Below are positions 3,001 to 6,000 of a stretch of DNA of 64,000 nucleotides, one piece after another. Every line of letters starts with the position of its first letter. Position 1 is the stretch's first letter. The stretch lies in NCBI RefSeq assembly GCF_013167455.1, contig NZ_CP038328.1. One strand, 5' to 3'. Source of the stretch: Escherichia coli O157:H7 (GTDB lineage Bacteria; Pseudomonadota; Gammaproteobacteria; Enterobacterales; Enterobacteriaceae). Made by a program: the position numbers.

Positions 3001-6000
3001 GGGGATTCTCAGGATGAACATAAAGGGTAAAGCGTTACTGGCAGGATGTATCGCGCTGGCATTCAGCAATATGGCTCTGGCAGAAGATATTAAAGTCGCG
3101 GTCGTGGGCGCAATGTCCGGTCCGGTTGCGCAGTACGGTGACCAGGAGTTTACCGGCGCAGAGCAGGCGGTTGCGGATATCAACGCTAAAGGCGGCATTA
3201 AAGGCAACAAACTGCAAATCGTAAAATATGACGATGCCTGTGACCCGAAACAGGCGGTTGCGGTGGCGAACAAAGTCGTTAACGACGGCATTAAATACGT
3301 GATTGGTCACCTCTGTTCTTCATCAACGCAGCCTGCGTCTGACATCTACGAAGACGAAGGCATTTTAATGATCACCCCAGCGGCAACCGCGCCGGAGCTG
3401 ACCGCCCGTGGCTATCAGCTGATCCTGCGCACCACCGGCCTGGACTCCGACCAGGGGCCGACGGCGGCGAAATATATTCTTGAGAAAGTGAAACCGCAGC
3501 GTATTGCTATCGTTCACGACAAACAGCAATACGGCGAAGGTCTGGCACGAGCGGTGCAGGACGGCCTGAAGAAAGGCAATGCTAACGTGGTGTTCTTTGA
3601 TGGTATCACCGCCGGGGAAAAAGATTTCTCAACGCTGGTGGCGCGTCTGAAAAAAGAGAATATCGACTTCGTTTACTACGGCGGTTATCACCCGGAAATG
3701 GGGCAAATCCTGCGTCAGGCACGCGCGGCAGGGTTGAAAACTCAGTTTATGGGGCCGGAAGGCGTGGCTAACGTCTCGCTGTCTAACATTGCGGGCGAAT
3801 CAGCGGAAGGGCTGCTGGTGACCAAGCCGAAGAACTACGATCAGGTTCCGGCGAACAAACCCATTGTTGATGCGATCAAAGCGAAAAAACAGGACCCAAG
3901 CGGCGCATTCGTTTGGACCACCTACGCCGCGCTGCAATCTTTGCAGGCGGGCCTGAATCAGTCTGACGATCCGGCTGAAATCGCCAAATACCTGAAAGCG
4001 AACTCCGTGGATACCGTAATGGGACCGCTGACCTGGGATGAGAAAGGCGATCTGAAAGGCTTTGAGTTCGGTGTGTTTGACTGGCACGCCAACGGCACGG
4101 CAACCGATGCGAAGTAACAGATAGATAAATGAAAATGCCCGATGCGCTGAACTGCCATCGGGTTTTTTTGTGTTTGTCGAAATGGTTGTAGAAAGATTAA
4201 ACAATCCAGGATATGCTTAATGTACGGTGACATACCGTACATATTATACGGAGCAGGAGAGTTCACATGTCTGCTGTTAAAAAGCAGCGTATCGATCTGC
4301 GTTTAACTGACGATGACAAAAGTATGATTGAGGAAGCGGCAGCGATATCTAATCAGTCCGTCAGCCAATTTATGTTGAACAGCGCTTCGCAGCGGGCTGC
4401 GGAAGTGATTGAACAGCATCGGCGGGTGATCCTCAATGAGGAATCCTGGACGCGGGTGATGGATGCGCTGAGTAATCCACCGTCACCAGGTGAAAAGCTA
4501 AAACGTGCGGCAAAACGTCTTCAGGGAATGTAATAATTTATGGATGATCTGACGATAGAGATTCTGACCGATGATGCAGATTATGATCTACAGCGATTCG
4601 ACTGCGGCGAGGAAGCGTTAAATCTCTTTCTGACGACACATCTCGTTCGTCAACATCGCAACAAAATTCTGCGAGCGTATATCCTTTGTCGCAACACTCC
4701 AGAACGTCAGGTGCTGGGATATTACACATTATGCGGCAGTTGTTTTGAACGAGCCGCATTGCCCTCGAAATCGAAACAGAAAAAAATTCCCTACAAAAAT
4801 ATTCCCAGCGTTACTCTTGGGCGTCTGGCAATTGATCGTTCATTACAGGGGCAGGGATGGGGAGCAACACTGGTTGCTCATGCCATGAAAGTCGTCTGGT
4901 CAGCCTCTTTAGCGGTAGGTATTCACGGTCTTTTTGTCGAGGCGCTGAATGAAAAAGCCCATACGTTTTATAAATCGCTGGGCTTTATCCCTTTAGTCGG
5001 GGAAAACGAAAATGCGTTATTTTTCCCAACCAAATCCATTGAACTGCTTTTTACACAGAGCGATTAACGCTTCTCCCAGCCGCCCTGCTGTGCCGTAAAT
5101 CCCAGTGCCTGCATAAACGCCGTCATCACACCGCGATCTTCCACGCCTGCATCCGCCATCCACCAGCATGAAACGCCAGGATTGTTACGCAAAACCTCTT
5201 CCAGCAGATATTGCCCCACACCGCGACGTCGAGTGACTTCCCGCACGCGCAGGGAATCCAGTGCCCCCTCGGTGCCGCTTAAGGTTACCCGCACGGCAGC
5301 AAGCAGGCGCTCGTTAAAACGCGCGGCGTAGATGCGGTGGTTATCGTCAACCTGTAAAGAGGAAGGGGAATACTCCGGCCAGATCTTTTGCAGGTCAATC
5401 CGGTCCTGGTCGCTAAATTTTTCTAATCGAATGATGGTCAGCTTCATGGGTAACCCGTGTAAATCACAAAAGTGGAACCAGTGTAGCGAAATAATTTAAT
5501 CGGAGGCTTTCTCTTTTTTATTTCTTTTGGCAGGTGATTAATTTCTTAACAGCAATAATTACAAAGTTAAAACATTAGAGAATGAAAAATACCCAGCATA
5601 ATCCCCTGAATGGTAGTGAATTATTCCGCCCTTTGTGCCGTTATTTTATGCTGACAAAGGCACTTTTTTCTGTTTATCTATCAATAAATTCAGAATATTA
5701 TCTGTTCTTAATCGACTGAAAAATAGGGACTTTAATCGCTATTATCACAAAATACTGCGCTAAACCCTTAATCAGACAGGCAAAAACAGTGCAGTATAAA
5801 AAAAGAACAGTCTGATTTGTTAACACATAAAAACAAAGCAACACAACATCACGAATGGGGATTTTTGACTATGAAACGGAATGCGAAAACTATCATCGCA
5901 GGGATGATTGCACTGGCAATTTCACACACCGCTTTAGCCGACGATATTAAAGTTGCCGTTGTCGGCGCGATGTCCGGCCCGATTGCCCAGTGGGGCGATA

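Follow-up and report, generated by a model that had tools for sequence, protein, structure and literature searches.

Conserved stop-codon overlap of the toxin gene ataT and panZ in Escherichia coli O157:H7, with predicted transcript ends inside each partner gene

In a 64,000-nucleotide stretch of the Escherichia coli O157:H7 genome (assembly GCF_013167455.1, contig NZ_CP038328.1; hereafter the window), the toxin gene ataT and the oppositely oriented gene panZ end tail to tail without any spacer, and their stop codons overlap in a single TTAA tetranucleotide. AtaT forms a toxin–antitoxin (TA) module with AtaR, and PanZ (also PanM or YhhK) is the maturation factor of PanD and a sensor of coenzyme A (CoA). 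The junction appears to be old and inherited, a long-standing presence/absence polymorphism and not a fresh insertion scar, and it is the conservation of the overlap register that seems to go beyond chance. With no spacer, the 3'-end signals of each gene must sit within the other gene. In the explanation that we regard as probable, panZ transcripts would end at a hairpin inside ataT, transcription of ataRT would be stopped by Rho within the antisense of panZ, and the effect on panZ would be small.

The ataT/panZ junction and its conservation

The letters at 5060-5072 are GCGATTAACGCTT. The ataT stop TAA occupies 5065-5067 on the + strand, and the panZ stop TAA is the reverse complement of 5064-5066. 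The two coding sequences thus overlap by 4 nt, 2 nt of which are common to both stop codons. The RefSeq annotation of an identical O157-type genome already shows this 4-nt overlap between ataT and panM, and the region is 100% identical between the window and O157:H7-type genomes. The ataT product is identical at 175 of 175 residues to the crystallised AtaT of enterohaemorrhagic E. coli (EHEC; PDB 6GTS chain A) and matches KacT with an E value of 8.5e-74, which places it among the GNAT toxins of the AtaT/KacT/TacT family. AtaR aligns over its full length with PDB 6AJM chain C (E 6.9e-52), and its gene ends 6 nt 5' of ataT in the same orientation, the antitoxin-upstream order of modules with a DUF1778/ribbon-helix-helix (RHH) antitoxin. 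Residues 1-126 of PanZ are identical to PDB 4CRY chain B. The Pfam models PF08681 (TacA1) and PF12568 (PanZ) match the AtaR orthologues in other lineages and the PanZ orthologues, respectively. A first-pass annotation of the window had reported convergent stops overlapping at TTAA with no spacer and had named the opposite-strand gene panZ; both statements are confirmed by the open reading frames (ORFs), the sequence, RefSeq and the PDB matches. It had also spoken of an "ataT-like" toxin, which is right as to family but too weak, as the protein is AtaT itself.

An overlap of this kind is routine. Lillo and Krakauer (2007) gave 4 bp as the modal length of convergent overlaps in prokaryotes and CTAA, TTAA, CTAG and TTAG as the tetramers allowed for a 4-nt convergent overlap; in E. 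coli they counted 58 convergent overlaps, with rho-independent terminators, necessarily within the coding sequence of the partner, for 23 of the 116 participating genes (PMC2174442). The ataT/panZ pair is the same in kind: two opposite-strand genes with experimentally known proteins, exactly 4 nt of overlap, one of the allowed tetramers and, as predicted below, a terminator within the partner. Three of the six convergent pairs in the first 50 kb of the window overlap according to the RefSeq annotation, the other two being yhhA/ugpQ (14 nt, 16874-16887) and rtcR with the gene of a DeoR/GlpR-family regulator (19 nt, 49103-49121), and TTAA occurs 263 times across the 64 kb. As a type, the overlap is not beyond chance expectation, and by itself, being already in RefSeq, it matters little. 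What sets it apart from the known 4-bp overlaps is a register shared across genera while the tetramer drifts, and a synonymous-site footprint of the embedded hairpin.

Relatives of AtaT were gathered by protein search and exact-sequence look-ups, and the contigs around them were then read; a contig scan with single-protein patterns gave just three Escherichia loci. All relatives with at least about 73% identity stand in one layout, in which livJ, the antitoxin gene and the toxin gene are followed by convergent panZ and then by livK. Besides the window, this unit occurs in E. albertii, E. whittamii, a further E. coli, cryptic-clade Escherichia, Salmonella enterica subsp. salamae and Pluralibacter, as well as in one IMG genome and in metagenome contigs. 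In contrast, the relatives with 71% identity or less lie at other, unrelated loci and have a spacer after the toxin stop. KacT of Klebsiella, an Enterobacter prophage copy, a plasmid- or phage-like E. coli copy and locus L022 belong to this second group. In one locus of the group, L016, a terminator-like hairpin directly follows the toxin stop, the one such case seen.

The overlap register is kept in six of seven deeply diverged lineages and in essentially all of the approximately 1620 E. coli carriers. The tetramer itself varies, being TTAA in Escherichia, L018 and L025, CTAG in S. salamae and L020, and CTAA in Pluralibacter. The C-termini of the toxins vary as well (…LFTQSD, …LFTPDD, …LFG, …LFD) while the register of the stops stays constant. 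The exception is the metagenomic locus L026 (toxin 79% identical), where panZ is one codon longer and 3 nt lie between the stops (L026 1456-1464). Only 1-4 codons separate the end of the conserved toxin core from the panZ stop, and the PDB construct 6AJN does without the last three AtaT residues. There is therefore no neutral place for a spacer, which alone can keep the overlap frozen. In the cryptic clade (E. marmotae, E. ruysiae and relatives; L008-L010 2501-3013), AtaT has 170 aa and lacks five residues in the KKIPY stretch of its lysine-rich loop, and the overlap is kept.

Identity to the window proteins in other genera and species is 73-79% for AtaT, 81-85% for AtaR and 77-84% for PanZ. 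Between the deep lineages it is 91-95% for LivJ, 88-93% for LivK, 76-86% for PanZ, 81-92% for AtaR and 73-84% for AtaT. These values suggest that ataRT diverged on the same scale as its neighbour panZ. Since the junction is found across Escherichia species, S. salamae, Pluralibacter and other contigs with AtaT and AtaR divergence close to that of PanZ, we believe that the unit is old. The term "inserted module" in the first-pass annotation is misleading, as it implies a recent event, whereas the same junction occurs in several genera and in about 30% of E. coli genomes.

Within E. coli, ataRT is present at the livJ-panZ site in 1620 of 5426 complete genomes. We surveyed the junction with 80-base probes across ataT/panZ in two forms, the O157 type and the ST131 (sequence type 131) type. 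Colinear matches were obtained in 1047 genomes for the former and in 575 for the latter, which is essentially all ataRT carriers. Genomes without ataRT do not have a simple gap at this place; a different spacer of 187-198 nt with two repetitive extragenic palindromic (REP) hairpins separates the livJ stop from the panZ stop. In the K-12-like empty allele (L001 517-703), this spacer is 187 nt long and holds two REP-type hairpins together with a small hairpin adjoining livJ. When occupied and empty alleles are aligned, the left similarity ends directly 3' of the livJ stop, and the right similarity resumes 3-5 nt before TTAA, the shared letters being CGA in the O157 type and GACGA in the ST131 type. 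A blastn search (word size 7) for ataRT remnants in the K-12-type spacer gave nothing significant, only these letters next to TTAA being common, and the stretch is too short to decide between insertion and deletion. The K-12-type empty allele therefore seems to be a replacement by a REP-containing spacer and not plain absence. Insertion of a mobile element with TTAA target duplication was considered as well and was rejected. No direct repeat, terminal inverted repeat or recombinase is found at the segment, whose only genes are ataR and ataT; its left boundary reads GAAGTAA/CAGATAG (the slash marks the boundary) and contains no TTAA; and the empty allele offers a different spacer instead of a clean excision site.

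The unit could have been passed on by vertical descent or spread in ancient times through recombination in its conserved flanks, and either allele may be the ancestral one. AtaT of E. albertii is 98.9% identical to that of the window while PanZ is 95.3% identical. A side observation concerns the last residue of PanZ (window 5067-5069; L001 about 707-709). The window and one empty-site strain have Arg (CGT) there, and the K-12-like strain has Cys (TGT). As the window-type residue also occurs in an empty-site strain, it is not tied to the presence of ataRT.

Predicted 3' ends of the panZ and ataRT transcripts

Past the panZ stop on the - strand, the RNA can form the hairpin AAAGCCCAGCG-loop-CGUAUGGGCUUU followed by UUCAUU, within codons 138-149 of ataT; the sequence following the stem is UUUUUCAUU. 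It has the structure of an intrinsic terminator, namely a GC-rich hairpin and then a U-tract on the transcribed strand. The predicted fold of 4948-4986 reaches -14.6 kcal/mol (z = -4.2), and 0 of 200 shuffled sequences were as stable. In five of five lineages scanned, this is the first terminator-like site past the panZ stop on the - strand, and it keeps a constant distance from the stop. The consensus across these lineages is AAAGCCCAG…CUGGGCUUUUUC(A/G)UU, and the stem core is invariant in eight sequences. A simple consensus terminator scan, which allowed loops of 3-8 nt, returned zero sites and missed both this hairpin and the one behind livJ because their loops exceed 8 nt; both are picked up by a more permissive scan.

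The synonymous codons of ataT argue for conservation beyond the coding requirement. We compared 103 degenerate columns with an invariant amino acid in five lineages, using a scan-corrected permutation. The same codon is used in all five lineages in 18 of the 103 columns, and these are concentrated in codons 138-149 (7 of 8 columns versus 11 of 95 elsewhere; P ~0.002-0.003). The seven kept columns read GAA AAA GCC … TTT … CTG GGC TTT, and the eighth, variable one is a loop codon. For Lys, Ala and Gly, they are the only columns of ataT with one codon in all five lineages. The GAA AAA codons, which give the U-tract on the - strand, are kept, whereas the 3' flank on the + strand (codons 150-151) is not. 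The hairpin is absent from KacT, the Enterobacter copy and L022, whose codons differ. At the other gene end, the last codons of panZ (5064-5115, - strand, codons 110-127) have the same codon in the five lineages in 6 of 12 invariant degenerate columns, compared with 7 of 64 elsewhere; this is a weak signal, because the residues are mostly two-fold degenerate.

All the above point, with moderate confidence, to an intrinsic terminator of panZ embedded in ataT. As the hairpin lies upstream of the ataT stop, it could terminate only panZ. The predicted panZ 3' end lies near 4948-4952, about 112-116 nt past the panZ stop, within an expected range of some 80-116 nt for the site as a whole, and synonymous-site selection would preserve it. 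If so, panZ mRNA would carry about 116 nt antisense to the 3' end of ataT, and the ataT and panZ mRNAs would share a complementary stretch of no less than about 120 nt (4948-5067). The arrangement resembles the bidirectional or embedded terminators known between convergent genes, with the same GC-rich stem and A-tract and U-tract flanks between convergent units. It differs from them in lying wholly within one ORF and in having a longer loop than usual, and its function is a prediction. Term-seq, differential RNA sequencing (dRNA-seq) and total RNA-seq data for O157:H7 Sakai have been deposited in GEO (GSE143631 and a Term-seq series; PMC7547250).

Several observations speak against an embedded terminator. 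The loop is long, with 10 nt if the inner pairs are counted as stem and 15-17 nt if not. When the comparison is extended to seven lineages including L026, the synonymous signal is weaker (P ~0.018), although codons 138-149 are still the top window with 80% codon identity against 51% overall. L026 has neither the overlap nor the canonical stem. In no other lineage do the GCC/GGC stem codons differ, and L026 has another predicted hairpin close by (L026 1340-1400). A weaker AAAGCC/GGCTTT complementarity is present in L027, a plasmid- or phage-like homologue that is not beside panZ. The stem codons AAA GCC and GGC TTT are also common codons for conserved GNAT residues, and the stem is supported by conservation and not by compensatory change. 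After L027 and L026 were seen, we softened the idea that the hairpin is exclusive to the clade adjoining panZ.

These observations could also be read as a frozen accident without adaptation. In that case the overlap would persist since indels harm one protein or the other, the hairpin would be a by-product of GNAT residues (K-A ... L-G-F) written in preferred codons or would serve the ataT mRNA, and panZ 3' ends would be made by Rho or RNA processing. The conserved residues with frequent codons, the L027 complementarity, the near lack of compensatory changes, the absent stem in L026 and the ability of the hairpin to form on either strand all agree with this reading. It accounts less well for codons 138-149 being the most synonymously conserved window of ataT in both the five- and the seven-lineage comparison, for single-codon Lys, Ala and Gly columns that occur nowhere else in the gene, and for the kept GAA AAA next to a drifting + strand flank. 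Nor would it predict a hairpin that keeps its spacing from the panZ stop throughout the lineages scanned, or the absence of the hairpin from KacT, the Enterobacter prophage copy and L022. We therefore consider a frozen accident unlikely, while taking it seriously.

For the ataRT transcript the picture is different. Neither the simple nor the permissive scan found a + strand hairpin with a U-tract after the ataT stop in 5067-5900 of the window. Nor do four other lineages have one within panZ, and the one site seen lies in the panZ-livK spacer of L020. A + strand hairpin with a T-run at 5628-5670 was examined as a read-through terminator for ataRT and discarded, as it is weak (-8.6 kcal/mol, z = -1.1) and behaves like shuffled sequence. 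With no intrinsic terminator between the ataT stop and livK, any ataRT transcript extending as far as the stop must continue for some distance into panZ as antisense RNA. The first-pass annotation had denied the inserted module a terminator of its own, and this is borne out for ataRT. As a description of the pair it fails, since panZ is predicted to have its conserved hairpin and U-tract within ataT.

C-rich, G-poor and unstructured untranslated RNA is characteristic of Rho entry sites, which extend over about 80 nt or more. The stretch 5068-5227 fits this description: over 160 nt it has 41% C and 18% G, the top C-over-G skew among all 160-nt windows on both strands of the 64 kb, and it folds more weakly than shuffled sequence (z = +1.3). 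The C/G ratio is 1.5-2.3 in the corresponding stretch of other lineages. Peters et al. in 2012 reportedly described how Rho suppresses antisense and untranslated transcription in E. coli, and the RNA in question, as judged from sequence features, is likewise untranslated, antisense, C-rich and unstructured. The untranslated read-through RNA of ataRT would thus be a candidate for termination by Rho in the antisense of panZ. Against this it must be said that no adaptation is required to explain the C-rich tract: it simply mirrors the G-rich codons of panZ on the other strand, and strains that lack ataRT have the identical sequence. For both transcripts, the termination mechanisms are predictions.

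Consequences for panZ and possible coupling

The preferred reading, an old overlap with panZ ending in ataT and ataRT ended by Rho, leads us to expect a small physiological effect on panZ, since ataRT represses its own expression and the cell requires very little PanZ. Leaky, uninduced PanZ suffices for PanD activation and cures the beta-alanine auxotrophy, and its overexpression is inhibitory (PMC4410942).

A contrary proposal is that a recently inserted TA module without a terminator sends antisense transcription through panZ and thereby lowers PanZ, PanD maturation and CoA synthesis, linking a toxin that consumes acetyl-CoA to the CoA supply. The lack of a spacer and of an intrinsic ataRT terminator before livK would allow it. 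So would the biochemistry, as PanZ binds CoA and acetyl-CoA and controls PanD (PMC4410942) and AtaT uses acetyl-CoA according to two reports (PMC7595197, PMC7367177). Nevertheless, the junction is ancient and widespread, ataRT is tightly autorepressed by the AtaR-AtaT complex (PMC8138530), the read-through RNA resembles a strong Rho substrate by its composition, and the leaky PanZ levels mentioned above are enough. Retention of the module by about 30% of E. coli genomes and by several genera argues against costly interference. No paper in the searched literature names ataT or ataR together with panZ, panM or yhhK, and the AtaT papers checked contain nothing on neighbouring genes or polarity. 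We regard this proposal as improbable. Antisense interference of ataRT with panZ is probably weak, and the acetyl-CoA connection, in which AtaT uses what PanZ senses, may be no more than a thematic coincidence.

It is still more doubtful that mutual regulation keeps the unit together, with the panZ 3' untranslated region (UTR) as an antisense RNA against the end of ataT, read-through from derepressed ataRT lowering PanZ, and a translation-blocking toxin wired to the CoA sensor. Least credible to us is a functional coupling in which the panZ 3' UTR, being complementary to the final ~120 nt of ataT, adjusts the expression of toxin relative to antitoxin (for example when RNase III cuts the duplex), or in which the TA module stabilises the panZ segment between livJ and livK. 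It would suit the exceptional persistence of a TA module at a single chromosomal site in several genera, the predicted mRNA complementarity of at least 120 nt and the flanking livJ and livK genes, direct repeats with 74% identity. However, it is purely inferential, the 70% of E. coli genomes without the module keep panZ, and the longest identical run of livJ and livK is 26 nt, so that deletion by recombination should be rare. Where it does occur, recombination between livJ and livK would remove panZ along with ataRT.

Returning to the reading that we prefer, ataT/panZ belongs to a known class, the 4-nt convergent overlap with a partner-embedded terminator, and its TA module is the known AtaRT; what we add are useful details and not a system of a new type. 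To judge from the literature searched, the cross-genus conservation of the junction, the restriction of ataRT to this site at 73% identity or more (an approximate bound) and the synonymous-site footprint of the embedded hairpin are new. AtaRT would then be an old resident of the livJ-panZ site in Escherichia, Salmonella salamae, Pluralibacter and relatives, and not a strain-specific acquisition of EHEC. Such residency is unusual for TA modules and is relevant to how their "mobility" is described. If the embedded terminator is real, ataT/panZ would be a clean natural example of a terminator maintained by synonymous-site selection within the coding sequence of a convergent neighbour. For work that removes or redesigns ataT in EHEC and ST131, it matters that the panZ 3' UTR and terminator probably lie within the last ~120 nt of the gene. 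Expression of panZ could for this reason change when ataT is cleanly deleted, and loss of panZ leads to beta-alanine auxotrophy.

Upstream signals and other features of the window

The gene order is rpoH-livJ-ataR-ataT, convergent panZ, and then livK-livHMGF. Table 1 collects the positions of the features. The probable livJ terminator (AAAATGCCCGATG / CATCGGGTTTTTT) lies directly 3' of livJ, inside the segment that differs from the empty allele, and the permissive scan found it on the - strand too. Just 5' of ataR is the perfect palindrome ATGTACGGT-N5-ACCGTACAT, which overlaps a TATTAT hexamer resembling a -10 element (4242-4247) and is conserved in Salmonella salamae as TGTACGGTGTATTACCGTACA. 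A consensus promoter scan called no site in the region of 4220-4242. We infer that the palindrome is the probable AtaR-AtaT operator. Among the GNAT-RHH type II modules AtaRT, KacAT and TacAT, the module here is AtaRT itself, with the antitoxin gene upstream and this operator-like palindrome before it.

Table 1 Features at the livJ-panZ site of the window and the evidence for each.
Feature	Position	Strand	Evidence
livJ, left flanking core gene	3014..4117	+	RefSeq annotation of identical genome; ORF list; alignment of occupied and empty site
Hairpin with T-run, probable livJ terminator	4132..4168	+	Inverted repeat I1: 13-nt arms, 85% complementary, 11 nt between arms
Perfect palindrome, probable AtaR-AtaT operator	4220..4242	.	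Inverted repeat I2: 9-nt arms, 100% complementary, N5
ataR, antitoxin, 88 aa, DUF1778/TacA family	4267..4533	+	PDB 6AJM chain C match; RefSeq name AtaR
ataT, GNAT toxin, 175 aa	4540..5067	+	PDB 6GTS chain A match; RefSeq name AtaT
Hairpin with U-tract in panZ 3' untranslated RNA, probable intrinsic terminator	4948..4986	-	Folding, conservation, scan
TTAA, stop/stop tetranucleotide common to ataT and panZ (4-nt convergent overlap)	5064..5067	.	Sequence, ORFs, RefSeq
panZ (panM, yhhK), PanD maturation factor and CoA sensor, 127 aa	5064..5447	-	PDB 4CRY chain B; RefSeq name PanM
ataRT read-through RNA, antisense to panZ 3' half, candidate Rho entry/termination zone	5068..5227	+	Composition, folding
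livK, right flanking core gene, livJ paralogue in direct orientation	5871..6980	+	RefSeq annotation

No Rfam family was matched in 3900-6000. The only hits of the window lie elsewhere and are two small RNAs that reach the Rfam gathering score, both on the + strand: RyhB at 21674-21738 with 83 bits, and ES036/CssrF at 45323-45365 with 39.3 bits, barely over its threshold of 37.6. Between yhgN and gntU, a RecQ-family helicase pseudogene with a frameshift and an internal stop in RefSeq overlaps the end of a DprA-like gene (27081-29205 and 29112-30407).

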